Shown here piece after piece: positions 1 to 23,151 of a DNA stretch of 32,000 bases. This DNA is from Trichodesmium erythraeum IMS101 (GTDB taxonomy: Bacteria > Cyanobacteriota > Cyanobacteriia > Cyanobacteriales > Microcoleaceae): the NCBI RefSeq assembly GCF_000014265.1, contig NC_008312.1, forward strand, positions 5,490,001 through 5,522,000, given 5' to 3'. The notes below the pieces were generated by a model. It worked only from the letters and a program-made list of their open reading frames with translations, was not told the origin of the DNA and ran no database searches. Each line of letters begins with the position of its first letter. Position 1 is the stretch's first letter. The position numbers and the translations under genes are program-made.

Positions 1-1328
1 TCCTAGAAAAAGGTAGTGGAGTTATTTGTCATATCTCTCAAAAGGAACTTCATAACAAATTAAAAAAGGGTGAAGCTATTGTCATGTTTGATGGGTTAGA
101 TGAAGTTTTCGACCCTGAAAAACGAGAAAGGGTAATAACTGATATTCATCGGTTTACTAATGACTATAAAAAGGTGCGAGTTATTGTTACTTCGCGGGTA
201 ATAGGTTATAAATTACAAAGACTCCGAGATGCTGAATTTTGTCATTTTATGTTGCAAGATTTAGATGAGGAACAAATTAATTATTTTATTAAAAATTGGC
301 ATGAGCTTACTTACAAAAGTGAAGAAGAAGAGACAAAAAAGTGGAGAATGGGACGGTTAAAACAAGCAATTAAGGATTTTTCAGCTATTAAAGAAATCGC
401 TAGAAATCCTCTATTATTAACTATGATGGCTATTATGAATCGTAATCAAGAACTTCCAAAATATAAAGCTGACCTCTATAATAATTCTTCAGAACTTTTG
501 TTAAAGTGGGATGTAGAAAGGGCGCTTCGTAGAGAAGGGATGGAACAAATTAATCTTGACTCTATAACAATTAAAGACAAGCAGGAAATATTGCGCCGGA
601 TGGCTAAGTTTATGCAGGAAAATAAAAAAGGTTTTGCTGGCAATTTAATCTCTGAGAATAATGTAGAAATAATTATCAAAGAATATCTAGATTTTCTAGG
701 TTTTAAGGATGCAATAATTATAGCTAGAGCCCTGCTTAAAGAGTTACGCAATCGGAATTTTATTTTATGTTTTGTTGGGGGTGGATATTATGCTTTTGTA
801 CATCGAACTTTTTTAGAATATTTCTGTGCCTGGAGTTTTGTTTGGGAGTTTAAGGAGACACAAACTATAAACATAAATCAGTTGATAAATGATGTTTTTG
901 AGAACCATTGGCGGGATGAAAATTGGCATGAAATTTTGCGATTAATTGCAGGAAAGATTAATGCTAATTTTGTGGGAAAAATTATTGGTTATTTGATGGA
1001 AAAAGATGGGGAAGAAGAAAAATTTATGAATTTATTTTTGGCGGGGAAATGTTTATTTGAAGTTGAACACCCTCAGCATATTGATGAGATAGCTTCTGAG
1101 TTATTGAATAGGTTAAAAGCTTTGACAAATTATAATCTTGATCATATTGACTATGATAGTAAAATTCGTACTCAAGCTGTAAAACTTGTGGCAGAAACTT
1201 GGAGGGATAATCGTTTAAATGAGGCTAATATTAAGACTTGGCTCGATAATATTGCAGAATCTCATAGTGATTTGAATGTACGGGAGAGAGCAAAAGAAGA
1301 GTTAGCTACTAGATGGAAAAATGACTGA
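1..1328 (+). CDS. NACHT-family STAND NTPase (bacterial NLR-like); 5' end lies outside the window
   Basis: The frame is open from base 3 (LEKGSGVICHISQKELHNKLKKGEAIVMFDGLDEVF). It aligns residue for residue with FLEKGSGVTCHLPQQELHAKLQNGDAIVMFDGLDEVF of the next gene, so the ATG at 84 is internal. NACHT-type motifs are present: Walker B IVMFDGLDEV, VIVTSR and NPLLLTMMA. The whole visible part is highly similar by eye to aa ~345-760 of the 2194-aa neighbour. It ends after only one or two degenerate HEAT-like units (IRTQAVKLVAETWRD, SDLNVRERAKEELATRWK). Confidence 0.85.
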   Translation, partial: LEKGSGVICHISQKELHNKLKKGEAIVMFDGLDEVFDPEKRERVITDIHRFTNDYKKVRVIVTSRVIGYKLQRLRDAEFCHFMLQDLDEEQINYFIKNWHELTYKSEEEETKKWRMGRLKQAIKDFSAIKEIARNPLLLTMMAIMNRNQELPKYKADLYNNSSELLLKWDVERALRREGMEQINLDSITIKDKQEILRRMAKFMQENKKGFAGNLISENNVEIIIKEYLDFLGFKDAIIIARALLKELRNRNFILCFVGGGYYAFVHRTFLEYFCAWSFVWEFKETQTININQLINDVFENHWRDENWHEILRLIAGKINANFVGKIIGYLMEKDGEEEKFMNLFLAGKCLFEVEHPQHIDEIASELLNRLKALTNYNLDHIDYDSKIRTQAVKLVAETWRDNRLNEANIKTWLDNIAESHSDLNVRERAKEELATRWKND

Positions 1329-1397: not shown

Positions 1398-4300
1398 ATG
1401 ATTGAACATTTAATTACTTGGATTTCTACTCAAGAGGTTGATTTTTTTACAAAGGAAGTTATTAGAGAATTAGCTAAACGTACACCTAAAGACTACGTTA
1501 AAGATTTTTTTAATTGGCTTATTTTTTACCTAAATGGTAGCAATATAAATACAAAGACTTTAGAAAAAGCAAATGTAGAAGCAATTAAAGAATTTTTGCA
1601 ATTGGTAAAGCAAGAATTAGAAGAAGTTGAGTTAGATGAAAGTCGATTAGAGCGATATATTGAACCCTTAGAACAATTTCTTAAAAATAAGTATGTTTTA
1701 AGAACTTTAGGTAGTGCATTTAATCATAATGTCAAAATTTTAGATACTAAGAAACTAGCTACTATCTGGAATAAAATTAATCCGCCCCTACCCGATGATT
1801 TTGACTGGGTCTTAGTTGTTAAGCAATATCAGAGAAGGGTGAAAAAAATTATTCGAGATTCTGATGAATTACGGAAAATATTAGACTCAGAAACCCTCGC
1901 TCAAATAGCAAATCAAAATTATAAAATTACACCAGAATTTGACCTCAGAAAATATCAAGAAGGAATCCAAGAACAATATGGAAAACTCAAATTAGAAAGT
2001 TTAGATACTAGTGGTTATGGTTATAATGAACTGAAATTATGGCGAATGTTTATTTCTCAAAATGTTCGGGAATCTCAAGAATTTAGGCCTCAATTATATG
2101 AAATTCCTAAAGAATATCTCCAACAATTAAAAGAGACTGGGCAGTTAGAAATAGAATTTTCTCCAGAACAATTGGAAACTGTCCGACGCAGATATTTAGA
2201 ACAGCCGGTTCGCTCAGTTTTAGAACTAATAGAAAATACTAACTATAAATATTTAGTTATTCTGGGAGACCCTGGTTCTGGCAAGTCTACTTTATTACAA
2301 TATATCGCTTTGAAATGGGCAGAATTACCTCTGAGAGATTTGCCTTTAAAACCAATTCCTCTATTAATTGAACTACGGAATTATGTGAGAAACCATGATT
2401 ATAATAAATGCCAAAATTTTCTAGATTTTCTCGAAAAAGGTAGCGGTGTAACTTGCCATTTACCTCAACAAGAACTTCATGCAAAACTACAAAATGGTGA
2501 TGCTATTGTGATGTTTGATGGATTAGATGAAGTTTTTGAACCTGCTAAAAGAAAGGAAATAATTACTGATATTCATGGATTTACAAATGATTATAAAAAT
2601 GTCCGGGTTATTGTTACTTCTAGAGTGATTGGTTATCAGCCACAACAACTCCGGGATGCTGAATTTTATCATTTTATGTTGCAAGATTTGGGGTCCGAAC
2701 AAGTTGATAATTTTATTCAAAGTTGGCATGATTTAACTTATCAAGATGAGCGGGAAAAAGAGCGGAAAAGAGAACGGTTGAAACGGGCAATTAATGATTT
2801 TTCAGCTATTAAGCAGTTGTCGGGAAATCCTTTGTTATTAACTATGATGGCTATTTTAAATCGTCATCAAGAATTACCGAGAGATAGGGCGGAACTTTAT
2901 AATCAAGCTTCTCGGGTTTTATTACAGCAATGGGATATGGAAAGGGCATTAGTTGATGCTAAGATTGACCCGATAACTATTGACTATAAAGATAAGCAAG
3001 AAATTTTGCGCCGAGTTGCTGATTTTATGCAGCAGAATAAAGAGGGTTTGGCTGGTAATTTGATTGATGAAAATAGCTTAGAAAATATTGTTAAAGAGTA
3101 TCTAAAAAGTGTAGATATTAATGATGTGAGAGTTGTGGCTAGGGCGTTGATGGAACAGTTGCGGGTTAGGAATTTTATTTTGTGTTTTGTTGGGGGTGGA
3201 TATTATGCTTTTGTACATCGAACTTTTTTAGAATATTTCTGTGCTTGGAGTTTTGTTTGGCAGTTTACGGTAACACAAACTCTGGGAAAAGATGGGTTGA
3301 TAAATGATGTTTTTGGTAGTCATTGGCGGGATGAAAAATGGCATGAAGTATTACGGTTAATTGCTGGGATGATAGATGCTAAGTTTGTGGGAGATATTAT
3401 TAGTTATTTGATGGAACAAGATGGGGAAGAGGAAAAGTTTCAGAATTTATTTTTGGCGGGCAAGTGTTTGTTTGAAGTTAGGAGTCGCCAGGGTATTGAT
3501 GATGTGGGTTATCGGTTATTAAATAGGTTAAAAAATTTGACTGGGTATGACCTTGGTTATTTTTATGAATCTTATGATGAAGATGATGAAGATGCAGAGT
3601 TAGTTCGTGAAATTCGTACTCAAGCTGTGGAAATAATGGCTACAACCTGGAGGGATGATCCTTCAACTTATACTTGGCTCAAACAAAGGGTTGTGTCTGA
3701 TGAAAGTTCGGATGTGCGAACTGAAGCCGTCCGACAAATAGCTACTGTTTGGAAACACGAGCCGGGAATTTTAGAATTACTCAAACAAAGGGTTGTGTCT
3801 GATGAAAGTTGGCAGGTGCGAACTGAAGCCGTCCGACAAATAGCTACTGTTTGGAAACACGAGCCGGGAATTTTAGATTTACTCAAACAATGGGTTGTGT
3901 CTGATGAAAGTGAGGATGTGCGAACTGAAGCCGTCCGACAAACAGCAACTGGTTGGAAACACGAGCCGGGAATTTTAGATTTACTCAAACAATGGGTTGT
4001 GTCTGATGAAAGTTGGCAGGTGCGAACTGAAGCCGTCCGACAAATAGCTACTGTTTGGAAACACGAGCCGGGAATTTTAGAATTACTCAAACAAAGGGTT
4101 GTGTCTGATGAAAGTTGGCAGGTGCGAACTGAAGCCGTCCGACAAATAGCTACTGTTTGGAAACACGAGCCGGGAATTTTAGAATTACTCAAACAAAGGG
4201 TTGTGTCTGATGAAAGTTGGCAGGTGCGAACTGAAGCCGTCCGACAAATAGCTACTGGTTGGAAACACGAGCCGGGAATTTTAGAATTACTCAAACAAAG

Positions 4301-7300
4301 GCTAGTATTTGATGAAAGTTCGGATGTGCGAACTGAAGCCCTCCGACAAATAGCAACTGGTTGGAAACACGAGCCGGGAATTTTAGAATTACTCAAACAA
4401 AGGCTAGTATTTGATGAAAACTGGCAGGTGCGAACTGAAGCCCTCCGACAAATAGCTAGTGGTTGGAAACACGAGCCGGGAATTTTAGAATTACTCAAAC
4501 AAAGGGTAAATTCTGATGATGACTCCGATGTGCGACTTGAAGCCATCCGACAAATAGCTCGTGGTTGGAAAAACGAGCCCCGAATTTTAGAATTACTCAA
4601 ACAAAGGCTAGTATTTGATCAAAGTTTGCAGGTGCGAACTGAAGCCGTCCGACAAATAGCTCGTGGTTGGAAAAACGAGCCCGGAATTTTAGAATTACTC
4701 AAACAATGGGTAAATTCTGATGATGACTCCGATGTGCGGCTTGAAGTACTCCGAGAAATAGCTAGAGCTTGGAAAAACGAGCCCGGAATTTTAGAATTAC
4801 TCAAACAATGGGTTGTGTCTCATGAAAGCTGGGATGTGCGAACTGAAGCCCTCCGACAAATAGCTAGTGGTTGGAAACACGAGCCCGGAATTTTAGAATT
4901 ACTCAAACAAAGGGTAAATTCTGATGATGACTCCGATGTGCGACTTGAAGCCATCCGACAAATAGCTCGTGGTTGGAAAAACGAGCCCCGAATTTTAGAA
5001 TTACTCAAACAAAGGCTAGTATTTGATCAAAGTTTGCAGGTGCGAACTGAAGCCGTCCGACAAATAGCTCGTGGTTGGAAAAACGAGCCCGGAATTTTAG
5101 AATTACTCAAACAATGGGTAAATTCTGATGATGACTCCGATGTGCGGCTTGAAGTACTCCGAGAAATAGCTAGAGCTTGGAAAAACGAGCCCGGAATTTT
5201 AGAATTACTCAAACAAAGGCTAGTATTTGATGAAAGTTCGGATGTGCGAACTGAAGCCGTCCGACAAATAGCTAGTGGCTGGAAAAACGAGCCCGGAATT
5301 TTAGAATTACTCAAACAAAGGCTAGTATTTGATGAAAGTTGGCAGGTGCGAACTGAAGCCCTCCGACAAATAGTTAGTGGTTGGAAAAACGAGCCCGGAA
5401 TTTTAGAATTACTCAAACAAAGGGTAAATTCTGATGATGACTCCGATGTGCGGCTTGAAGTACTCCGAGAAATAGCTAGAGCTTGGAAAAACGAGCCCGG
5501 AATTTTAGAATTACTCAAACAAAGGCTAGTATTTGATGAAAGTTCGGATATGCGAACTGAAGCCGTCCGACAAATAGCTAGTGGCTGGAAAAACGAGCCC
5601 CGAATTTTAGAATTACTCAAACAAAGGCTAGTATTTGATGAAAGTTGGCAGGTGCGAACTGAAGCCCTCCGACAAATAGTTAGTGGTTGGAAACAAGAGC
5701 CGGGAATTTTAGAATTACTCAAACAAAGGGTAAATTCTGATGATGACTCCGATGTGCGACTTGAAGCCCTTCGAGAAATAGCTAGTGGTTGGAAAAACGA
5801 GCCCCGAATTTTAGAATTACTCAAACAATGGGTTGTGTATGGTGATGATATGTTTGTGCGACTTGAAGCCCTCCGAGAAATAGCTAGTGGTTGGAAACAC
5901 GATCCCCGAATTTTAGAATTACTCAAACAAAGGCTAGTATTTGATGAAAGTTGGCAGGTGCGACTTGAAGCACTCGAACAAATAGTTAGTGGTTGGAAAC
6001 AAGAGCCGAGAATTTTAGAATTACTCAAACAAAGACTAGTGTCTGATGAAAATTCGGATGTGCGTCTTGAAGCCGTCCGACAAATAGTTAGTGGTTGGAA
6101 ACACGAGCCCGGAATTTTAGAATTACTCAAACAAAGGGTAAATTCTGATGATGACTCGGATGTGCGGCTTGAAGCACTCCGACAAATAGCCAGTAGTTGG
6201 AAAAACGAGCCCGGAATTTTAGAATTACTCAAACAAAAGCTAATATCTGATGAAAGTTGGCAGGTGCGACTTGAAGCACTCGAACAAATAGTTAGTGGTT
6301 GGAAACAAGAGCCGGGAATTTTAGAATTACTCAAACAAAGGCTAGTATTTGATGAAAACTGGCAGGTGCGACTTGAAACACTCGAACAAATAGTCAGTAA
6401 CTGGAAACAGGAGTCGGGAATTTTAGAATTACTCAAACAAAGACTAGTGTCTGATGAAAATTCGGATGTGCGGCTTGAAGTACTCCGGCAAATAGCTAGT
6501 GGTTGGAAAAACGAGCCCGGAATTTTAGAATTACTCAAACAAAGACTAGTGTCTGATGAAAATTCGGATGTGCGGCTTGAAGCGCTCCGACAAATAGTTA
6601 GTAGCTGGAAACATCAGCCAGAAATTTTAGAATTACTCAAGCAAAGGCTAGTTTCTGATAATGACTCGGATGTGCGAACTGAAGCCGTCCGACAAATAAA
6701 TAGTGGTTGGAAAAACCAGCCAGAAATTTTAGAATTACTGAAACAAAAGCTAGTGTCTGATGAAAATTCAGATGTGCGACTTGAAGCACTCCGACAAATA
6801 GTTAGTAGCTGGAAACACGAGCCCGGAATTTTAGAATTACTCAAGCAAAGGCTAGTTTCTGATAATGACTCCGATGTGCGGCTTGAAGCACTCCGACAAA
6901 TAGCTAGTACTTGGAAACATCAGCCAGAAATTTTAGAATTACTCAAGCAAAGGCTAGTTTCTGATAATGACTCGGATGTGCGAACTGAAGCCGTCCGACA
7001 AATAAATAGTGGTTGGAAAAACCAGCCAGAAATTTTAGAATTACTGAAACAAAAGCTAGTGTCTGATGAAAATTCGGATGTGCGACTTGAAGCACTCCGA
7101 CAAATAGTTAGTAGCTGGAAACACGAGCCCGGAATTTTAGAATTACTCAAGCAAAGGCTAGTTTCTGATAATGACTCGGATGTGCGAACTGAAGCCGTCC
7201 GACAAATAAATAGTGGTTGGAAAAACCAGCCAGAAATTTTGGAATTACTGAAACAAAAGCTAGTGTCTGATGAAAATTCGGATGTGCGAACTGAAGCGCT

Positions 7301-7982
7301 CCGACAAATAGCTAGTACTTGGAAACATCAGCCAGAAATTTTAGAATTACTCAAGCAAAGGCTAGTTTCTGATAATGACTCGGATGTGCGAACTGAAGCC
7401 GTCCGACAAATAAATAGTGGTTGGAAAAACCAGCCCGGAATTTTAGAATTACTGAAACAAAAGCTAGTGTCTGATGAAAATTCGGATGTGCGGCTTGAAG
7501 CACTCCGACAAATAGCTAGTACTTGGAAACATCAGCCAGAAATTTTAGAATTACTCAAGCAAAGGCTAGTTTCTGATAATGACTCCGATGTGCGAACTGA
7601 AGCCGTCCGACAAATAAATAGTGGTTGGAAAAACCAGCCAGAAATTTTAGAATTACTGAAACAAAAGCTAGTGTCTGATGAAAATTCGGATGTGCGAACT
7701 GAAGCACTTCGACAAATAGCTAGTAGTTGGAAATATCAGCCAGGAATTTTTGAATTGTTTTATCACGCCGCCCTCAATGACCCCTTTCAAAATGAAGATG
7801 AGTTTTCAGACAACCCTCGACAAACAGCACTAGAAGTAATAGTCGAACAATACCCAGAGCATCCACAAACCCTCCCATTATTAAAAGACAGAGCAGAAAA
7901 CGACCCAGACACACAACTACAGGAGTGGGCAAAAGAGACATTGCAGCAATTAGAAAATAGCTACTACAAGTATCTTTCATAA
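1398..7982 (+). CDS. Giant NACHT NTPase (bacterial NLR-like) with an unassigned N-terminal domain and a C-terminal array of 40 HEAT-like 34-aa repeats
   Basis: Single 2194-aa ORF. Walker A GDPGSGKST lies at 2265-2291, and Walker B IVMFDGLDEV at about 2509-2538. VIVTSR and GNPLLLTMMA motifs and a helical/winged-helix-like region (FILCFVGGGYYAFVHRTFLEYF) follow. From 3696 there are 40 units carrying the HEAT/PBS-lyase-like signature D-x4-VR-x-E-A-x-R-Q-I. Confidence 0.9.
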   Translation: MIEHLITWISTQEVDFFTKEVIRELAKRTPKDYVKDFFNWLIFYLNGSNINTKTLEKANVEAIKEFLQLVKQELEEVELDESRLERYIEPLEQFLKNKYVLRTLGSAFNHNVKILDTKKLATIWNKINPPLPDDFDWVLVVKQYQRRVKKIIRDSDELRKILDSETLAQIANQNYKITPEFDLRKYQEGIQEQYGKLKLESLDTSGYGYNELKLWRMFISQNVRESQEFRPQLYEIPKEYLQQLKETGQLEIEFSPEQLETVRRRYLEQPVRSVLELIENTNYKYLVILGDPGSGKSTLLQYIALKWAELPLRDLPLKPIPLLIELRNYVRNHDYNKCQNFLDFLEKGSGVTCHLPQQELHAKLQNGDAIVMFDGLDEVFEPAKRKEIITDIHGFTNDYKNVRVIVTSRVIGYQPQQLRDAEFYHFMLQDLGSEQVDNFIQSWHDLTYQDEREKERKRERLKRAINDFSAIKQLSGNPLLLTMMAILNRHQELPRDRAELYNQASRVLLQQWDMERALVDAKIDPITIDYKDKQEILRRVADFMQQNKEGLAGNLIDENSLENIVKEYLKSVDINDVRVVARALMEQLRVRNFILCFVGGGYYAFVHRTFLEYFCAWSFVWQFTVTQTLGKDGLINDVFGSHWRDEKWHEVLRLIAGMIDAKFVGDIISYLMEQDGEEEKFQNLFLAGKCLFEVRSRQGIDDVGYRLLNRLKNLTGYDLGYFYESYDEDDEDAELVREIRTQAVEIMATTWRDDPSTYTWLKQRVVSDESSDVRTEAVRQIATVWKHEPGILELLKQRVVSDESWQVRTEAVRQIATVWKHEPGILDLLKQWVVSDESEDVRTEAVRQTATGWKHEPGILDLLKQWVVSDESWQVRTEAVRQIATVWKHEPGILELLKQRVVSDESWQVRTEAVRQIATVWKHEPGILELLKQRVVSDESWQVRTEAVRQIATGWKHEPGILELLKQRLVFDESSDVRTEALRQIATGWKHEPGILELLKQRLVFDENWQVRTEALRQIASGWKHEPGILELLKQRVNSDDDSDVRLEAIRQIARGWKNEPRILELLKQRLVFDQSLQVRTEAVRQIARGWKNEPGILELLKQWVNSDDDSDVRLEVLREIARAWKNEPGILELLKQWVVSHESWDVRTEALRQIASGWKHEPGILELLKQRVNSDDDSDVRLEAIRQIARGWKNEPRILELLKQRLVFDQSLQVRTEAVRQIARGWKNEPGILELLKQWVNSDDDSDVRLEVLREIARAWKNEPGILELLKQRLVFDESSDVRTEAVRQIASGWKNEPGILELLKQRLVFDESWQVRTEALRQIVSGWKNEPGILELLKQRVNSDDDSDVRLEVLREIARAWKNEPGILELLKQRLVFDESSDMRTEAVRQIASGWKNEPRILELLKQRLVFDESWQVRTEALRQIVSGWKQEPGILELLKQRVNSDDDSDVRLEALREIASGWKNEPRILELLKQWVVYGDDMFVRLEALREIASGWKHDPRILELLKQRLVFDESWQVRLEALEQIVSGWKQEPRILELLKQRLVSDENSDVRLEAVRQIVSGWKHEPGILELLKQRVNSDDDSDVRLEALRQIASSWKNEPGILELLKQKLISDESWQVRLEALEQIVSGWKQEPGILELLKQRLVFDENWQVRLETLEQIVSNWKQESGILELLKQRLVSDENSDVRLEVLRQIASGWKNEPGILELLKQRLVSDENSDVRLEALRQIVSSWKHQPEILELLKQRLVSDNDSDVRTEAVRQINSGWKNQPEILELLKQKLVSDENSDVRLEALRQIVSSWKHEPGILELLKQRLVSDNDSDVRLEALRQIASTWKHQPEILELLKQRLVSDNDSDVRTEAVRQINSGWKNQPEILELLKQKLVSDENSDVRLEALRQIVSSWKHEPGILELLKQRLVSDNDSDVRTEAVRQINSGWKNQPEILELLKQKLVSDENSDVRTEALRQIASTWKHQPEILELLKQRLVSDNDSDVRTEAVRQINSGWKNQPGILELLKQKLVSDENSDVRLEALRQIASTWKHQPEILELLKQRLVSDNDSDVRTEAVRQINSGWKNQPEILELLKQKLVSDENSDVRTEALRQIASSWKYQPGIFELFYHAALNDPFQNEDEFSDNPRQTALEVIVEQYPEHPQTLPLLKDRAENDPDTQLQEWAKETLQQLENSYYKYLS
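3696..7775 (+). repeat. Tandem array of 40 x 102 bp (34 aa), in frame, inside the NACHT gene
   Basis: Consensus unit is SDESWQVRTEAVRQIASGWKHEPGILELLKQRLV. I counted 40 units directly from the translation, and 40 x 102 = 4080 bp matches 3696..7775 exactly. Many adjacent units are identical or nearly identical at the DNA level. A 41st degenerate unit follows (NDPFQNEDEFSDNPRQTALEVIVEQ). Confidence 0.95.
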
Positions 7983-11990: not shown

Positions 11991-13475
11991 ATGATTCAAC
12001 CTGAAAATATAGAAAATTCTAGTGACAAAGATATGAGTAATCACTCCTTAAATATAGCCACAGTTATTAAAGTATTTCAAGCAATTTATAGTGAGATTGT
12101 CTTAGATAAGTTACTATCTAAATTGATGAAAATTATCATGGAAAATACTGGTGCAGAAAAAGGTGTACTTTTTCTACTAACAAAAGGTGAACTAATCAAT
12201 AGAGCTGAAGCTAACTTAGATTCGGAAGCAGTAGTAGTTCAAGAGACTCAAATTCATGAATGTGAAGACTTACCACTAACAGTAATTAACTATGTGGAGC
12301 GATCGCGCCAAGATGTTGTATTAAGCAATGCTTTTGCTGAAGATAGCTTCACAACTGACCCCTATGTTGTCAAAGTTAAACTGAAATCTGTTTTATGTAC
12401 TCCTATTGTTAATAGAGGCCAACTTATAGGAGTTTTGTATTTGGAAAATAACCAAACTACAGGTGCATTTACTCCAGAATGTTGGGAAATATTAAGATTT
12501 TTATTATCTCAAGCAGCAGTTTCCTTAGAAAATGCAATGTTGCACAGTTCAGCAGAAGAAAAAATACAAGAAACAACCGAAGAATTAAACGAAAAAAATT
12601 TACAACTAGAGCAAACATTACAGGAGCTACAACGCACTAAATCTCAACTAATTAAAGGTGAAAAAATGTCAAGTTTAGGGCAGTTAGTTGCTGGAATAGC
12701 TCACGAAATTAATAACCCTGTCGGCTTTATTTATGGTAATATGTCCCCTGCCAATGAATATATTTCTGACTTACTAAATTTGATTAATTTATATCAAGAA
12801 CACTATCCTGAACCTGTAGACGAGATTCAAGATGAAATTGAAGATATGGACTTAGAATTTCTTATAGAAGACTTACAAAAACTTTTGAATTCTATTAAAT
12901 TTGGAGCCGAACGTATTCGAGATATTGTAATTTCCATCCGCAACTTCTCGCGCTTGGATGAAGCCAATATGAATCCTATAAATATCCATGAAAATATTGA
13001 CAGTACCATACTAATTTTAAATACTCGTATTAAAGAAAAATCAGATAAAAGTGAAATTAAAATAGTCAAAAATTATGGTAGCTTACCAGAAGTTATCTGT
13101 TACGTTTCGCAAATTAATCAAGTATTTATGAATTTACTAGCTAATGGAATTGATGCTTTAGAAACTATGCGAGAAAAAAAACAACAATTTGACCGTCAAC
13201 CCACTATTACAATTTCTACTGAAGTAACAGATTTAGAAACAGTAAAAATCAAAATTTATGACAATGGTAGTGGTATTAATTCTGAAGCATTATCTCAAAT
13301 ATTTGACCCATTTTTTACTACTAAACCAGTGGGAGTAGGTACAGGTTTAGGATTATCAATTAGCCATTCAATTGTAGTAGAAAAACATGGGGGTAATTTG
13401 AGTTGTGTTTCTGAAGTTGGAAAAGGTACAGAGTTCATAATTGAAATTCCTATTAAACCAGCATCTAGTAATTAG
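11991..13475 (+). CDS. Soluble GAF-domain sensor histidine kinase
   Basis: The N-terminal GAF-like region ends in GVLYLEN. A coiled-coil linker follows, then the H-box GIAHEINNP, N-box NLLANGIDA, G1 DNGSGI and G2 GTGLGLS. There is no hydrophobic segment and no adjacent response regulator. Confidence 0.9.
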   Translation: MIQPENIENSSDKDMSNHSLNIATVIKVFQAIYSEIVLDKLLSKLMKIIMENTGAEKGVLFLLTKGELINRAEANLDSEAVVVQETQIHECEDLPLTVINYVERSRQDVVLSNAFAEDSFTTDPYVVKVKLKSVLCTPIVNRGQLIGVLYLENNQTTGAFTPECWEILRFLLSQAAVSLENAMLHSSAEEKIQETTEELNEKNLQLEQTLQELQRTKSQLIKGEKMSSLGQLVAGIAHEINNPVGFIYGNMSPANEYISDLLNLINLYQEHYPEPVDEIQDEIEDMDLEFLIEDLQKLLNSIKFGAERIRDIVISIRNFSRLDEANMNPINIHENIDSTILILNTRIKEKSDKSEIKIVKNYGSLPEVICYVSQINQVFMNLLANGIDALETMREKKQQFDRQPTITISTEVTDLETVKIKIYDNGSGINSEALSQIFDPFFTTKPVGVGTGLGLSISHSIVVEKHGGNLSCVSEVGKGTEFIIEIPIKPASSN

Positions 13476-13931
13476 AGTTAATATCATCTGAGTGAAATTA
13501 AAATAGTCAAAAATTATGGTAGCTTACCAGAAGTTATCTGTTACGTTTCGCAAATTAATCAAGTATTTATGAATTTACTAGCTAATGGAATTGATGCTTT
13601 AGAAACTATGGGAGAAAAAAAACAACAATTTGACCGTCAACCCACTATTACAATTTCTACTGAAGTAACAGATTTAGAAACAGTAAAAATCAAAATTTAT
13701 GACAATGGTAGTGGTATTAATTCTGAAGCATTATCTCAAATATTTGACCCATTTTTTACTACTAAACCAGTGGGAGTAGGTACAGGTTTAGGATTATCAA
13801 TTAGCCATTCAATTGTAGTAGAAAAACATGGGGGTAATTTGAGTTGTGTTTCTGAAGTTGGAAAAGGTACAGAGTTCATAATTGAAATTCCTATTAAACC
13901 AGCATCTAGTAATTAGAGTTAATATCATCTG
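13050..13931 (+). repeat. Perfect head-to-tail tandem duplication, 2 x 441 bp, covering the 3' end of the histidine kinase gene
   Basis: 13050-13490 and 13491-13931 are identical except c13170 versus g13611 (Arg to Gly). Each copy carries the last 142 codons, the stop codon and 15 nt of 3' flank. Confidence 0.95.
13569..13916 (+). pseudogene. Orphan HATPase_c fragment created by the tandem duplication
   Basis: The 115-aa ORF is identical, bar one residue, to the C-terminus of the kinase. It starts at an internal Met (MNLLANGIDA) and lacks the H-box/DHp domain. Confidence 0.6.
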
Positions 13932-18120: not shown

Positions 18121-19496
18121 CGGGACTTTAGCAAATTTCAAGCCCAAACAAACCCTAAACTCTCTTTATGAGCGGTAAATACCTCGATGTTTTCATCTAA
18201 CCACTCAACAAAACGATAAGATATTGCGGTACAAAATGCTTCTAAAGTATCAGTAAACGTATTTAATGGTTTGTTAGCCCAACGCCTTCTTATACCTCCT
18301 GTTAACTGATGCCAGATAATAAATGTATAAGCACAAAATACTAAAATAAAATGCCTTTTAAGGCTGATTTTATCTCTGACTTGATATTCTCTTAATCCTA
18401 ACCATCCTTTGGCTTCCCTGTAGAAAACTTCCACCCAATTTCTTTGAGAATAAGTAGAATATATCCACTCAGGAGTTACATATTTGTCTTCTCTATTAGT
18501 GATATAATAGTTAATATCAGTGGCCTCAGAAAAACTTTTAGCATTCATAACGATAGCTATAGTTTTTTGACCTGACATCCTAGATATTTCTACTTCTAAT
18601 GTAGCTACCCAAACTTCTCTAGCATTTTTTGTACTTAGTTGAACTAAGTTGAAAGCTTTCTGAGGTATACTTTCTGCCAGCTTGTCTAATCTAATTTCCT
18701 CTTTAATGTCATCTTGTTTTTTAATGATGACTTTTCGATTTTTAGCTAATCCTCCTATATAAGTTAAACTTCTTTTCTCTAGTTGATTTAAGAATGATGT
18801 ATTGTTACCATAGCCAAATTTCAATTAACACAATTTCTGGTTGGTGTCCTCTGGACAAACATTGATCTACTAGAGACATTGCACTCGTCTGGTTTCTTGA
18901 CAAATTCTGGGTCTTTTTTTCCTTTTGGAAAAGAATCAGCTTTCTGATACAAAGCTATGTCTAAAGGTAGACTTTTAACTCCATCATAAAGATGAGTTGT
19001 CACCACGACTACACCATTATCTGTTTTTCCTATTTCTCCTATATATTGCCGCCCTACTCCTGCAGTAAAATTACCACTTTTTCTGTGGCCTGAATCGTCT
19101 ATAATTAAAGCAATAGGATCGAGAAGGTTTTGTTTGGCGACGTTCCCACATTACTTGAAGACGACGCTCATTCACAGCATCTACAGACCAATTTGCTCGA
19201 ACTAGAAAATGCCGTAATTTGTGGTACGTGTGACCTACAGTGTTGTTGGCAATTTGAGACAAGTTTTTTCGATCGCTTTCTCAAGAGTAATCCTCCTATA
19301 TATTCCCTAAACCCTGTTTTTTGGGCTTTTGTTTTAAAGACATTGTTAAAGCGATCGCACCATCGATGGAAACAAGAGGGCATGGCCACTGAAGTTGTTT
19401 CTTTCATCAAACTTTTCCCAGGCCAGTAATTAACGTAAAATACATATCAGGTATACATTATACCCTTTTTTTTACTATTTTTTCACTAAAGTCCCG
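18121..19496 (-). mobile_element. IS701-like insertion sequence, complete ends
   Basis: 11-bp terminal inverted repeats: CGGGACTTTAG at 18121-18131 and CTAAAGTCCCG at 19486-19496. A 4-bp direct repeat ATAG flanks both ends (18117-18120 and 19497-19500). Length is 1376 bp, and the transposase reading frames are on the minus strand. Confidence 0.8.
18138..19410 (-). pseudogene. IS701-family DDE transposase, disrupted by several frameshifts
   Basis: Four ORF pieces (19410-19168, 19262-19071, 19006-18821, 18824-18138) sit in frames 0/2/1/2. Together they spell the family pattern (ALIIDDSGHRKSGNFTAGVGRQYIGEIGKTDNGVVVVTTHLYDG...GYGNNTSFL...). At least three frame changes are needed. Confidence 0.75.
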
Positions 19497-19649: not shown

Positions 19650-20867
19650 TTACAACGATACTACCGGATTTGATATTAATTCTTCTAAAAAAGATTGACC
19701 AGCTTTTTCCAAATCAGAGTCAATAGCAAATGTCAAAGTACGCAATCTTACTTGACTTTCACCAACTAATTGATTAATATAATTAGTTAGTCTTTGAGGA
19801 TAAATCAAAATAGCTTCGTGACATTTTTTATAAGTTGCATAAGCTACCACTTGGTTAATATCATCTGTCGATGGTCTGCAATCCAACTTATATTTAGTAT
19901 CAAGAATATAAACAACCTTGCAAGTTTTTATTTCATAAATAACTAAATCAATTTTACAATAAATTTTATCATCAACAATTTCTACTTTTTCTTGTTCTTT
20001 AACTCTTAAATTTGAGGATAGATGCAATTTTAACCATTTAGCTACAAATTTTTCATAGAGTTTAGCCATATCTATTAAAAAAGGTAACATTGAGTAATTA
20101 CCCTGTTGATGACTAGCTCCAATATTATCCAAAAAAAATCGACATAAACCGTGTAAAACCTGATAATCTTCATTCAAACGATGATATTTTATATTCAGAC
20201 AATCACTAGATTTAAAAGGTTGTAAAGTTACCAAACCTTGCAAAATATGAAAAGCTCTTGTTACAGTTACAGCGACTTTTTCAGAACAAAAACTACTACG
20301 GCTAATGATAAACAAAGTCCAAGCCAAAATTTGATTATCAGGAATATTAGCAGTATGTTCTTGATAATCACATTTTAAACTAACACCCCAGGGTTTGTGC
20401 ATAACTTGCCGCATATTTAATCGTCCCCGAATATAAGTTAAATTTTCTGTTTTTGGCAGATAAGCACGATGAAAACCTTTTCGACCTCGCTCTAATATTT
20501 TTTGAGCCAGAATATTAACTAAACAGTTGTAAAATTCCTGTAGAGAATTACAGTTAACTAAACCATCTAAAAAACAAAAACTTCTGAGGTTGTAGGCATA
20601 TTCCAACATTCCAAATAGGTTATGAAGTGGTACCTTAGGTTTAAGAATGATGTGAAAATCCAGAGTTATGGGAATATAACCCACCCACCCTTGAGAAGTA
20701 AATTGCCATTTGTTGTTGGTTTTGGGAGTAGGAAATTCAACTTTAATTTTTTGACCTTTTTGATCGTATTCTTGCCATAATTTAGTAGGAATACTATAAT
20801 CAATTTTATCTGGTGAAAACTGGTAAGGTTGATATTCAGTGAGTTCGATGATTTGGGAAGATTTCAT
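19650..20867 (-). CDS. mcrC: McrC-family nuclease subunit of a McrBC-type (type IV) restriction system
   Basis: 405 aa, immediately downstream (63 nt) of the McrB-family gene. The C-terminal PD-(D/E)xK-like motif is IDLVIYE...YILDTKYK, matching the D...(D/E)-x-K core typical of McrC. The N-terminus is typical of the family (IELTEYQ). Confidence 0.85.
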   Translation of the reverse strand: MKSSQIIELTEYQPYQFSPDKIDYSIPTKLWQEYDQKGQKIKVEFPTPKTNNKWQFTSQGWVGYIPITLDFHIILKPKVPLHNLFGMLEYAYNLRSFCFLDGLVNCNSLQEFYNCLVNILAQKILERGRKGFHRAYLPKTENLTYIRGRLNMRQVMHKPWGVSLKCDYQEHTANIPDNQILAWTLFIISRSSFCSEKVAVTVTRAFHILQGLVTLQPFKSSDCLNIKYHRLNEDYQVLHGLCRFFLDNIGASHQQGNYSMLPFLIDMAKLYEKFVAKWLKLHLSSNLRVKEQEKVEIVDDKIYCKIDLVIYEIKTCKVVYILDTKYKLDCRPSTDDINQVVAYATYKKCHEAILIYPQRLTNYINQLVGESQVRLRTLTFAIDSDLEKAGQSFLEELISNPVVSL

Positions 20868-20930
20868 ATTGTTTTTGAAGCAGACATAATAGATACTTTT
20901 TGCATCTGAGATGTGGGGAAAAGTCTATAT

Positions 20931-22550
20931 CTAACAAATTGTCTTTGACATCCGATGTTGAATTTTTTCCCACCGAAAATCATTGACTTTTTCTGGTTGA
21001 GCAAAGAAATATTCCTCTAAATATGGTTCAATTTCCATTTGCCAAATATCTGGAATTTCCTCTGCAATATTTTTTCGGAGAAAGAAGGAAACACCGACTT
21101 GATAGTTGGGGTCGTTTATTTCTTGGTTGACTGCTTCTAAAAGTTGAGTTAACCCCTCCACTGAAAAATTTGTTTCTATTTCCTTGTAGTATTGAAGCAA
21201 TATTTCATACTTAGGGGAGAGAGTGATGAAAGCAAAGCGACGACGAAGTGCATGGTCTACTAAAGCAATGGAGCGATCGGCAGTATTCATAGTGCCAATG
21301 ATGCGAACATTTTTAGGAATGCTGAATAATTCTGCACTACCAGCAAGGGGAATTTTGGCGTCGCGGTATTCCAGGAGGTACATAAGTTCGCCGAAAACTT
21401 GGGAGAGGTTAGCCCGGTTAATTTCATCAATGATGAGTACGCAAATATCTTGATTAAGTGCTGCTTTTTGACAAAATTGTAGGAAGCGACCGGGAACAAC
21501 AGGGTAGGTGAGTTTACCATCTTGGCTTTGGGGTCGAATACCTTGAATAAAGTCTTCGTAGGTATAAGCAGAATGAAATTGGATCAGTTCCCAGAAGCCG
21601 TCACCTCGACTGATTAAGTGTTGGGCGAGTTTTTGAGAGAGGAAAGTTTTGCCTGTACCAGGTGGACCTTGGAAAATAGCCTGTTTTTTACGGTTGATAG
21701 CGCGTATCCATTGGGTGAGTTCTGTTTCTGTGAAGTTTGTTTCTTGGGAGCATTGAGTTAGAGTGTATTCTGGTTGTAAATTAATCACATTTATTTTTTG
21801 ATCTTGATCTTGATTAGTTTTATAGATATTGTCTGTACTCTTTATATTTTCACTAATAAAATTGTATTTTTTTACATCTACCAACCAATAACAAAACATA
21901 TCAAACAAATCATCATCTCGCATTGCAGGTATATTTTGCTTCTGCATTTCTTCAGCTAATTCTAAAATTAGATTATGGCCAGTGAGATTAATATATGGGT
22001 ATTCAGTTAGCTTTTGAGTATGTTTTGTGTTACTTAAATAATTAATTACTTTTCTGGATTTATTATTAATTAAAAGAAAATCATCTGGTTTGACTGCATT
22101 CAGAATAGGTGTTATTATTCCTATTTTAAATTCTCTAGAATATGGTAATTTAGAAAAATTTTTACAAGCTACTAAAAATTTATGATAATCTGTAATACAG
22201 GAAGTTACAAAATTATAAATTGCTCTAGTAATAACAGACCAATCTTCTTGCTTTTCCAACCATTGAAACCATTCACTTAAATCAGTATTGCTAGATTCAC
22301 TCAAGTAAATCCATACACCCTTTTGTCGATTACTGGGAGTATTAGTATGAGGTAAAAGTTTCCATATAATCAACTCTGTTATGTCTTCCCCTGCCTTAGC
22401 AGCAGTAGTTATTTCTTCAAAATTCCGGCGACCTTGTTGACGTTGTTTTTCATAAGATGCTCTATGATTTAATCCTTCTAAGCTATAGGGATATGAGTCA
22501 GAAAATTCTTGAAAAAGTTGAACAAATAAAGTTAGTTGTTGAATTGCCAT
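20931..22550 (-). CDS. mcrB: McrB-family AAA+ GTPase with an unassigned ~270-aa N-terminal domain
   Basis: Walker A FQGPPGTGKTF (about 21645-21671). Walker B and family motif LIIDEINRANLSQVFGELMYLLE. McrB signature MNxxDRS present as GTMNTADRS, followed by RRRF. The first ~270 aa carry no motif I can name. Confidence 0.9.
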   Translation of the reverse strand: MAIQQLTLFVQLFQEFSDSYPYSLEGLNHRASYEKQRQQGRRNFEEITTAAKAGEDITELIIWKLLPHTNTPSNRQKGVWIYLSESSNTDLSEWFQWLEKQEDWSVITRAIYNFVTSCITDYHKFLVACKNFSKLPYSREFKIGIITPILNAVKPDDFLLINNKSRKVINYLSNTKHTQKLTEYPYINLTGHNLILELAEEMQKQNIPAMRDDDLFDMFCYWLVDVKKYNFISENIKSTDNIYKTNQDQDQKINVINLQPEYTLTQCSQETNFTETELTQWIRAINRKKQAIFQGPPGTGKTFLSQKLAQHLISRGDGFWELIQFHSAYTYEDFIQGIRPQSQDGKLTYPVVPGRFLQFCQKAALNQDICVLIIDEINRANLSQVFGELMYLLEYRDAKIPLAGSAELFSIPKNVRIIGTMNTADRSIALVDHALRRRFAFITLSPKYEILLQYYKEIETNFSVEGLTQLLEAVNQEINDPNYQVGVSFFLRKNIAEEIPDIWQMEIEPYLEEYFFAQPEKVNDFRWEKIQHRMSKTIC

Positions 22551-22694
22551 ACACAGTTATTTTAATTTTTGGTGTTGGTTATTTTGACTATGATTGTGCA
22601 AGAATTGCGATGGCCTAACTCTTAACTGAAAATAATTTTTAATTGGGCTAAATAATGGTTTCATAGCTTGATTCACAAACGCCTTATTTTTGAA

Positions 22695-23135
22695 CTATTC
22701 AAAATCATAGTCTACTAATTTCTTAATAATTTCAAATTCATTAGGTTTCAAGTAACGATAGCTTTGAGGTGGCCTAAAAGTATTCAATTCTTGTCTTAAT
22801 TGTTCTAATTCTACTGGATTACTAAAAGTTTTAATTTTTTGGAAAAATATTCCAATCCCCAAATCTAATCCTGAATAATAATCGTAAAATTCTTCCTGGG
22901 TAATTCCTGCTTTTTCTTCGACTTCATCCCAAAGGTAAGAGATATTTTTTTTGATAATTTTTTTGACTTTAAAGTAACCAACTACAGCTTTTTTAGGAGA
23001 TGAAACATAAACTATAACTAAATCATCTTTATCTAAAGAAGGAAAAACACGACGTAATTCAACTTTTTTTGTTTTCTGGTAGAAAATTTTATCAGCATAT
23101 TCTGGCTTTATAGATAAAAGAACTGTATTTGGCAT
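22695..23135 (-). CDS. Stand-alone ASCH (PUA-like fold) domain protein
   Basis: 146 aa. The N-terminal pattern LLSIKPEYADKIFYQKTKKVELRR followed by VIVYVSSPKKAVVGYFKV matches the ASCH/COG4933-type consensus as I remember it. The start is 16 nt after the stop of the upstream gene, with an AGGA about 10 nt upstream. Confidence 0.65.
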   Translation of the reverse strand: MPNTVLLSIKPEYADKIFYQKTKKVELRRVFPSLDKDDLVIVYVSSPKKAVVGYFKVKKIIKKNISYLWDEVEEKAGITQEEFYDYYSGLDLGIGIFFQKIKTFSNPVELEQLRQELNTFRPPQSYRYLKPNEFEIIKKLVDYDFE

Positions 23136-23151
23136 ATTTGAATAATCCTAA

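Follow-up and report, generated by a model that had tools for sequence, protein, structure and literature searches.

An NNH2-NACHT-HEAT protein of Trichodesmium erythraeum with a 40-unit HEAT array and a conserved array-less paralog upstream

We analysed a 32,000-nucleotide (nt) stretch of the Trichodesmium erythraeum IMS101 genome (NC_008312.1, positions 5,490,001 to 5,522,000; hereafter the window), in which one long open reading frame (ORF), here gene B, encodes an NNH2 domain, a NACHT NTPase and a long array of HEAT repeats, and lies downstream of a paralog without the array, here gene A. The coordinates of both genes and of their parts are collected in Table 1. The frame of gene B stays open over 2194 codons, or 6.6 kb, and by every membership test that could be run its product belongs to the NNH2-NACHT-HEAT family, a group of bacterial NLR-related (STAND) ATPases. 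This architecture has already been catalogued (Pfam NNH2, PF22734; Kibby et al., bioRxiv 10.1101/2022.07.19.500537), and gene B is not a new type of system. It has the longest HEAT array that we found in the family; new in this analysis is the array-less gene A upstream of it, a pair conserved in Trichodesmium and Okeania.

Table 1. Genes, domains and repeat features at the gene A-gene B locus, with a defence-type cluster farther downstream (window positions; aa, amino acids).
Feature	Position	Strand	Basis or remarks
Gene A, 3' part: C-terminal 441 aa and stop of a 782-aa NNH2-NACHT paralog without array	3..1328	+	frame 3 open
Gene B, NNH2-NACHT-HEAT protein	1398..7982	+	2194 aa; ORF list, translation, Pfam
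NNH2 (NACHT N-terminal helical domain 2), aa 25-204, all-helical	1470..2009	+	Pfam PF22734
NACHT NTPase core, aa 285-444	2250..2729	+	Pfam PF05729, E 4.3e-10
Walker A, GDPGSGKS, aa 290-297	2265-2288	+	as in NACHT-clade STAND proteins
Walker B, IVMFDGLDE, aa 370-378	2505-2531	+	extra acidic residues, as in NACHT-clade STAND proteins
NACHT-associated helical and winged-helix region, passing into cryptic HEAT-like helical hairpins from about aa 631	2730..3593	+	AlphaFold2 model
Degenerate unit 0, aa 733-766, ELVREIRTQAVEIMATTWRDDPSTYTWLKQRVV	3594..3695	+	translation; helical hairpin in both AlphaFold2 models
HEAT array, 40 x 102 nt (34 aa), aa 767-2126	3696..7775	+	Tandem Repeats Finder, unit table, entropy, AlphaFold2, Foldseek
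Most recent block duplication, units 9-10-11 corresponding to 13-14-15	4479..5216	+	difference matrix, exact matches by lag
C-terminal part of array, units 29-39	6552..7673	+	difference matrix, unit-family string
Conserved C-terminal cap, NDPFQ...NPRQTALE...HPQTLPLLKDRAENDPD..., two degenerate hairpins	7776..7979	+	array comparison
Defence-type cluster next to ileS	19650-25257	-	McrC-like (PF10117), AAA_5 McrB-like, ASCH, GNAT

A preliminary description of gene B, drawn up from the letters of the sequence alone, had divided the protein into an unknown N-terminal domain, a NACHT domain and a solenoid of HEAT-like repeats. Pfam, AlphaFold2 (AF2) and Foldseek bear out the latter two parts, with Pfam matches to NACHT (40.1 bits against a cut-off of 26.7) and to HEAT_2-type repeats (E 2e-148), but the first part is not unknown: it matches Pfam NNH2 over the full profile (1-181, E 6.8e-54) and is helical from aa 2 to 194 in the AF2 model. 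NNH2 lies N-terminal to NACHT in 45 of 45 long relatives. Sensor-1 is R409 and the histidine of the winged-helix domain (WHD) is H607; together with G290, G295, K296, S297, D374, D377 and E378, these two residues are invariant across 41 homologs.

The AF2 model of aa 1-766 has a predicted local distance difference test (pLDDT) score of 79.7, reaching 80-95 across the NACHT-associated helical and winged-helix stretch. Its top Foldseek matches in the PDB are NLRC4 (4kxf, E 3e-12), NLRP3 and NOD2, with about 600 columns aligned, and the predicted fold resembles that of animal NLRs in placing a nucleotide-binding domain (NBD) before helical and winged-helix domains. PDB searches by sequence alone, whether eight repeat units or the N-terminal 766 aa served as query, gave no match; profiles and the fold search succeeded.

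Tandem Repeats Finder identified a single array in gene B (3678-7756; period 102 nt, 40.0 copies, 84% matches, 0% indels, score 4898), in which the motif LLKQ occurs 39 times at an exact spacing of 34 aa. The 40 x 34-aa array of the preliminary description, in whose register the first unit starts at aa 767 (nt 3696), was thus correct, with 40 in-frame units and no indels. The solenoid exceeds these units, as it also takes in unit 0, the cryptic hairpins from about aa 631 and the two-hairpin cap. This cap follows the family pattern NDPF...NPRQ...LPLL and is found after the arrays of a Trichodesmium metagenome-assembled genome (MAG; L001) and of two Okeania loci (L002 and L011), as well as in the consensus of 41 homologs; the first unit, the last unit and the cap are conserved across species. 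In the AF2 model of aa 733-1106 (pLDDT 93.8, predicted template-modelling score 0.86) the repeats form a regular stack of hairpins with 14- and 11-residue helices per unit, each unit comprising a turn (positions 2-4), helix B (5-18), a linker (19-24) and helix A (25-34). Foldseek matches this model to HEAT/ARM solenoids, karyopherin-beta, Integrator, YibA and alphaRep, and the family profile matches YibA (1oyz, 5e-9) and the alphaRep entries 9rhz and 6gx7 by sequence. The repeats of gene B are accordingly modelled as HEAT hairpins of the alphaRep/YibA type.

To call the units near-identical, as was done initially, overstates their likeness. Their mean pairwise identity is 73% at the aa and 83% at the nt level, with 31 distinct aa units among 39 and 34 distinct nt units. 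An identity of at least 85% is reached by 10% of unit pairs, and 37 of the 39 units have such a partner; within low-divergence blocks, for example units 1-6 or units 30, 33, 35, 37 and 39, the differences amount to 0-7 nt. Two ORFs lie antisense inside the array (3668-4600, 310 aa, and 5027-6538, 503 aa, both on the minus strand), which we read as a by-product and not as genes because the repeat unit has no reverse-strand stop codon. A promoter and terminator scan of the window told us little, as every repeat unit carries a copy of one weak promoter-like match.

Per-position entropy, computed over units 1-39, separates a constrained scaffold from a limited set of variable sites. R8, E10, W19, K20, I25, L26, L28, L29, K30 and Q31 are invariant, V7 and I15 have one exception each, and the variable positions are 1, 3-6, 9, 12, 16-18, 21, 22, 24 and 32-34. 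All residue strings that the preliminary description had listed for positions 1-6, 16-18 and 21-24 are present in the unit table, and its conserved positions agree with the entropy profile, but its ILELLKQ block was one position off, as the block occupies 25-31 and the variable tail 32-34. Its variable set was real but incomplete: position 9 (T in 21 units, L in 18) and position 12 (L/V/I) had been missed, and D2 and P23 are nearly invariant.

We compared this profile with 19 related arrays, each with 10 or more units; one of them is from the Planctomycetota and one from the Acidobacteriota. Positions 3, 4, 5, 6, 9, 32 and 34 exceed 1 bit of entropy in 15 to 19 of the 19 arrays (position 9 in all of them), followed by 13, 21, 33 and 18, and the variability profile of gene B correlates with the family mean (Spearman rho 0.64, p 4e-5). 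Across the family, the hot patch runs from the end of helix A through the A-to-B turn into the first turns of helix B. The claim that variation is confined to fixed positions of a constrained scaffold therefore holds, with hot positions that recur in other arrays. The gene B array varies, in addition, at 12, 16-18 and 21-24, on the opposite edge of the hairpin, and is constant throughout the body of helix A (25-31).

In crystal complexes of alphaRep proteins, the variable positions 18, 19, 22, 23, 26 and 30 make up the concave binding surface (PMC3754942). Profile alignment places alphaRep V20-R21 on V7-R8 of gene B, and these surface positions therefore correspond to unit positions 5, 6, 9, 10, 13 and 17. 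On this alignment, the family-wide hot positions 5, 6, 9 and 13 appear to coincide with the alphaRep binding surface.

The difference matrix of the units reveals how the array has grown. Five unit pairs are identical at the nt level (4=5, 9=13, 10=14, 15=18 and 30=33), and the longest exact internal repeat, of 330 nt, recurs at a lag of four units (copies 4479-4808 and 4887-5216). Units 29-39 belong mainly to two alternating families, SDENSD...HQPE/HEPG and SDNDSD...INSG..NQPE..KLV, and the unit-family string ends ...QRSTRSRQRQR; unit identity at lags of two to four is above that at a lag of one. For 36 of the 39 units the nearest relative lies within the same array (compared with 17 other arrays), and identity within the array is 0.73, versus 0.65-0.68 to syntenic orthologs. 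The identical units, the block repeat and the nearest relatives within the array are therefore the footprint of lineage-specific expansion with concerted evolution. Of the informative site pairs, 37% show all four gametes, a sign of either exchange between units or recurrent mutation. Repeat shuffling, as suggested in the preliminary description, has thus left visible traces of duplication and recombination.

Diversification of the type driven by diversity-generating retroelements (DGRs) is not indicated, as no reverse transcriptase was found among the window ORFs scanned, a scan that left out six small ORFs and did not seek a template repeat. A 28-unit paralog from Okeania sp. SIO2C9 (L011, 9980-15367; mean aa identity 83-84%) is more homogeneous than the Trichodesmium array, and its units alternate strictly between SDEDSD and SDENWQ/YDENWQ types. 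A metagenome scan for the pre-array junction of gene B returned no match, and a scan for the unit core returned 13 contigs, all of them paralogs about 75-87% identical or from other species and none carrying the same-species locus across the array. The metagenome contigs from the same species stop short of the array, at window nt 1937 (L040, 99.4% identical) and nt 2277 (L041, 98.6%).

To gauge selection on the 39 units, we used pairwise Nei-Gojobori (NG86) estimates, which give a dN/dS of 0.73 overall. At 17 conserved scaffold codons dN/dS is 0.12 at a dS of 0.22, so that recent copying alone does not explain the conservation of the scaffold, which is under purifying selection. The corresponding value at 17 variable codons, 1.38, is frequency-weighted and circular, the sites having been chosen post hoc. 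A minimum-event count comes to 53 non-synonymous and 29 synonymous changes (omega 0.52, or 0.53 on hot positions picked from other arrays), and a minimum spanning tree of the units gives an omega of 0.57-0.88 (p for a non-synonymous excess >0.8). Because neither the event nor the tree counts show the non-synonymous excess named in the preliminary description as a mark of a diversifying surface, diversifying selection may, but need not, act on the repeats of gene B.

The length of the array is unusual, as had been supposed: 40 units is the maximum among the proteins and fetched loci compared. Our N-terminal query identified 2890 relatives, those listed being 780-1324 aa long and many marked partial; the array query identified 121 proteins, all with NACHT and the longest of 1623 aa, and a distant actinomycete NACHT-HEAT protein reaches 2095 aa. 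The runner-up arrays in the fetched genomic loci have 28 (L011) and 22 units, and syntenic orthologs of gene B carry 10-12 units (10, 11 and at least 11 in the loci counted), although repeats may be collapsed in their assemblies. This comparison of lengths is biased, because short-read assemblies collapse or break arrays, and truncation of such arrays in them has been described (PMC12222747).

NNH2 alone matches only 251 clusters at 50% identity among 1.84 billion representatives and is almost always N-terminal. Downstream of it, the 45 long members have NACHT in every case and HEAT_2 in 35; TPR arrays (2 members) or a GUN4-like porphyrin-binding domain (1 member) are rare alternative C-termini in an otherwise fixed architecture. 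The NNH2-NACHT-HEAT family is concentrated in filamentous cyanobacteria, with 3-5 paralogs per genome in Okeania, Dapis and Trichodesmium, and homologs are also found on plasmids. On the mobilizable plasmid pGLO7428.03 of Gloeocapsa sp. PCC 7428 (L056, 6998-16334), an array-less homolog that is 54% identical adjoins a 1117-aa Swt1-family HEPN protein, a four-helix-bundle protein and a DUF1156 protein, which are defence-like surroundings. We rejected as a relative the 3126-aa protein P0363, an unrelated repetitive protein found by the NNH2 search with 39 matched stretches, and likewise a phage origin: the sole phage match is a 20%-identical NTPase, and no phage carries the family.

Gene A is cut by the left edge of the window, and the ORF listed at 84-1328 is part of it. 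The fragment is 99.5% identical to aa 342-782 of the protein P0074 and 62% identical to aa 345-788 of gene B. Full-length A (P0074) is colinear with B and 61% identical to it, NNH2 included; it has intact Walker A and B motifs, sensor-1 and WHD histidine, and ends right after the first HEAT hairpin. Genes A and B share a strand and are separated by 69 nt, and the same order with a gap of 69-72 nt is present in two Trichodesmium MAGs (L001, L006), in erythraeum- and thiebautii-like metagenome contigs (L040, L041, L055) and in Okeania (L002, L003). Across the Trichodesmium MAGs, the thiebautii-like contigs and the two Okeania genomes the arrangement is kept at 76-86% identity, and the length of A is fixed at 770-784 aa.

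Elsewhere in the window, the ASCH protein of the cluster next to ileS matches the PADLOC candidate PDC-M11B (5e-36), and its 701-aa GNAT protein weakly matches PDC-M11A. A 441-bp tandem duplication (13050-13931; 2.0 copies, 99% identical) copies the 3' end of a GAF histidine-kinase gene (11991-13475) and leaves an orphan HATPase_c ORF at 13569-13916. A DDE transposase fragment at 18138-18824 on the minus strand, with partial DDE_Tnp_1 and DDE_Tnp_1_4 matches, probably stems from an insertion sequence that has decayed. Scans of the window for Rfam families and tRNAs gave no hits. Among the window ORFs, five are identical to IMS101 proteins (ABG52658, 52659, 52664, 52666 and 52667) in a collection of 15 billion proteins; the exact gene B protein was not found there, the closest match to its N-terminal 766 aa being only 84-88% identical, and a scan of GTDB species-representative genomes recovered no identical or close locus. 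Highly repetitive genes may be dropped from public sets or left unannotated in them.

Taken together, these results lead us to regard gene B, an NNH2-NACHT-HEAT STAND ATPase, as probably an intracellular sensor whose solenoid binds ligands that signal invaders or conflict, with A as its probable partner. We infer the steps of its mechanism from animal, plant and bacterial NLRs, and set them on the parts, predicted folds, catalytic motifs, scaffold selection, shared variation and array growth described above. At rest, an ADP-bound NACHT would be kept closed by the helical and winged-helix domains and the start of the solenoid. The HEAT solenoid would be the ligand-binding part, with V7, R8, E10, A11, I15, W19, K20, P23 and helix A (25-31) as its stacking scaffold. 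Its contact surface would comprise the A-to-B turn (32, 34, 3 and 4) and the first turns of helix B (5, 6, 9 and 13), and in the gene B array would also take in the B-to-A linker (16-18 and 21-24). Binding of a ligand would free NACHT for nucleotide exchange and oligomerisation, clustering the NNH2 domains so that they deliver the output; the array-less A upstream probably works with B. Over evolutionary time, unequal recombination would duplicate blocks of one to four units, and exchange between units would homogenise the scaffold and reshuffle the variable residues. We consider sensing of phage, other mobile elements or another conflict-type signal the most likely role, and an anti-phage role in particular is suggested by analogy. 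Counted in favour of a conflict-type role are the multi-copy family, the plasmid-borne homologs, the HEPN and DUF1156 neighbours of one such homolog and the antigen-receptor-type class to which HEAT C-termini belong.

Several observations weigh against a sensor of this kind. The immediate neighbours of gene B, a pentapeptide-repeat protein and a Rieske oxygenase, are not defence genes, and the nearest defence-type genes (McrBC-like and the PDC-M11 cluster) lie 12-17 kb downstream. PADLOC found no meaningful match to B or the A fragment, only spurious repeat-driven or P-loop ones, NCBIfam matched gene B at the NACHT level only (EruA 37.6 bits against a cut-off of 1000), and our literature search found no member of the NNH2 clade of gene B with an experimentally established function. 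NNH2 has no recognisable enzymatic or pore-forming signature, and the C-terminus of the family is nearly always HEAT and is not swapped among sensor types as it is in many immune STAND clades. The absence of a non-synonymous excess from the event-based counts belongs on this side too. Of the idea that the variable sites line one face, the part concerning positions 5, 6, 9 and 13 fits the alphaRep surface, but variable sites lie at both hairpin edges (turn 1-6 and linker 16-24), and because a test of helical periodicity for one face of helix B was not significant (p 0.57 in the window, 0.07 in the family), we do not claim a single variable face. Positions 12 (L/V/I) and 33 (L/V) show conservative hydrophobic swaps that look like core packing, and the variable positions could be merely tolerant surface sites. 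The size of the solenoid is a further point: with the alphaRep geometry of 22 degrees per repeat, 16 repeats per turn and a pitch of about 6 nm (PMC10089216), the 43-46 hairpins of gene B would make about 2.7-2.9 superhelical turns. This surface is far above the need of one ligand, which suggests several binding sites, an extended target or a neutral excess.

Neutral expansion is the alternative to be taken most seriously, and we regard it as possible though rather doubtful: gene B would be a non-immune STAND regulator or scaffold, its array a product of slippage and unequal crossing-over in a genome that tolerates repeats, and its hot sites merely the tolerant exposed positions of any HEAT hairpin. 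This would fit the event-based omega of 0.5-0.9, the metabolic or signalling genes nearby, the near-constant coupling of NNH2-NACHT to HEAT and a limited repertoire in which the same residue pairs return in all arrays (SD and WQ/WD at 5-6; HE/NE/NQ at 21-22). Natural HEAT-like families generally have such variable positions, the basis of the alphaRep design (PMC3754942). It fits less well with a frequency-weighted dN/dS of 1.4 at variable sites against 0.12 at scaffold sites, with the high entropy of position 9 in every family array compared, with a family that has several copies per genome, is lineage-specific and in some cases lies on plasmids or beside HEPN/DUF1156 genes, or with immune NLRs as the closest folds. 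That the array is instead mis-assembled, or gene B a decaying pseudogene that no longer functions, is highly improbable. The missing database entry and lack of a close GTDB-representative match, despite the presence of the neighbours, and the far shorter syntenic orthologs would agree with an artefact of this kind. However, the longest exact repeat of 330 nt is shorter than a Sanger read, and the finished IMS101 assembly is therefore considered credible; in addition, 34 distinct nt units anchor the order, the frame is intact over its whole length without indels, and the scaffold is under purifying selection. The short orthologs may owe their length to the known truncation of such arrays by short-read assemblies (PMC12222747).

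The pairing of A with B allows for bolder readings. In one, which we hold to be quite unlikely, A and B would co-oligomerise through NACHT and NNH2, B being the diversified sensor and A its helper, amplifier or regulator; besides sensing phage, such a pair could let filaments tell self from non-self. NAIP/NLRC4 is a precedent for two paralogous NACHT proteins working jointly, and plant sensor/helper pairs are comparable. The conserved same-strand spacing in Trichodesmium and Okeania, the colinearity of the two proteins through NNH2, and the fixed length and complete ATPase motifs of A speak for such a pair; against it, tandem paralogs can stay syntenic even when they are not functionally coupled, other B-like paralogs lack an A-like gene beside them, and array-less forms are also found singly. 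A sensor/helper pair in which B is a recombination-diversified, multi-specific receptor with a strain-variable array, its 40 units making about 2.5-3 superhelical turns if alphaRep is a guide, and senses phage or filament self and non-self in colonies, is likewise unlikely. If true, it would be a prokaryotic counterpart of the allorecognition or immune receptors that fungi have in their NLRs with high internal conservation (HIC) of repeats.

Returning to gene B as a probable sensor, two of its features merit further work. One is the hypervariable patch that the whole family carries on a designable scaffold; the other is the conserved tandem with the array-less gene A, a concrete candidate for cooperative NLR signalling in bacteria. 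Because the family is compact (251 clusters) and the scaffold is close to alphaRep, ligand mapping and engineering are realistic. The true diversity of such arrays is probably underestimated, because short-read assemblies truncate or lose them and gene B itself is missing from the collection. The host, Trichodesmium, is a marine and ecologically important nitrogen fixer.

Among known systems, the closest are the bacterial NACHT (bNACHT) proteins of Kibby et al. (bioRxiv 10.1101/2022.07.19.500537), from which the NNH naming derives; HEAT C-termini were classed there as antigen-receptor-type, and several bNACHT proteins defend against phage. Members with NNH and HEAT share with gene B the three-part architecture and the Pfam domains, and enrichment with paralog expansion in cyanobacteria and other multicellular bacteria is a further common trait. 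Gene B differs from a typical NNH2-HEAT bNACHT protein (1000-1300 aa) in having about 3-4 times as many repeats and a tandem array-less paralog; we found no phenotype reported for any NNH2-HEAT member in the literature searched. The hairpin motif ...DxxxxVRxxAxxxLxxxx..., profile-aligned, is shared with alphaRep and E. coli YibA (1oyz), and in alphaRep, too, it is the beginning and exposed face of helix B that carry the variable positions. In contrast to alphaRep, the unit of gene B has 34 instead of 31 aa, is also hot where helix A ends and in the turn (32, 34, 3 and 4), and has an invariant E10 (alphaRep position 23); moreover, a NACHT switch is joined to the solenoid. Animal NLRs (NLRC4/NAIP, NLRP3 and NOD2) have the same order of NBD, helical and winged-helix domains and are the best structural matches to aa 1-766, but their sensor is made of leucine-rich repeats and not HEAT, they have CARD, PYD or BIR domains in place of NNH2, and sequence identity is just 11-16%.

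Fungal HIC NLRs of the HNWD family, in which WD40, ANK, TPR or HEAT repeats follow NACHT (Dyrka et al. 2014, PMC4986451; PMC12222747), resemble gene B in how the array evolves. Both have tandem repeats (24-42 aa in the fungi) that are closer to each other than to those of orthologs, block duplication, shuffling, few variable positions per repeat and arrays truncated in short-read assemblies. The fungal criterion of repeats at least 85% identical to each other over at least 100 aa is reached by sub-blocks of gene B alone, the whole array standing at 73% aa identity; moreover, positive selection is not demonstrable in gene B, and its repeat type is bacterial HEAT. If the sensor reading is true, the fungal mode of diversifying NLR sensors, with tandem repeats, a fixed scaffold, few variable positions and reshuffling by recombination, would also be at work in a bacterial NACHT family, as an alternative to the DGR route in multicellular bacteria. 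DGR-diversified STAND sensors are found in the same types of host and share the logic of conflict systems and a diversified C-terminal sensor (PMC10907252; PMC7159879). There, a reverse transcriptase acts on a single FGS/CLec domain, whereas in gene B variation arises by duplication of and recombination between tandem repeats.

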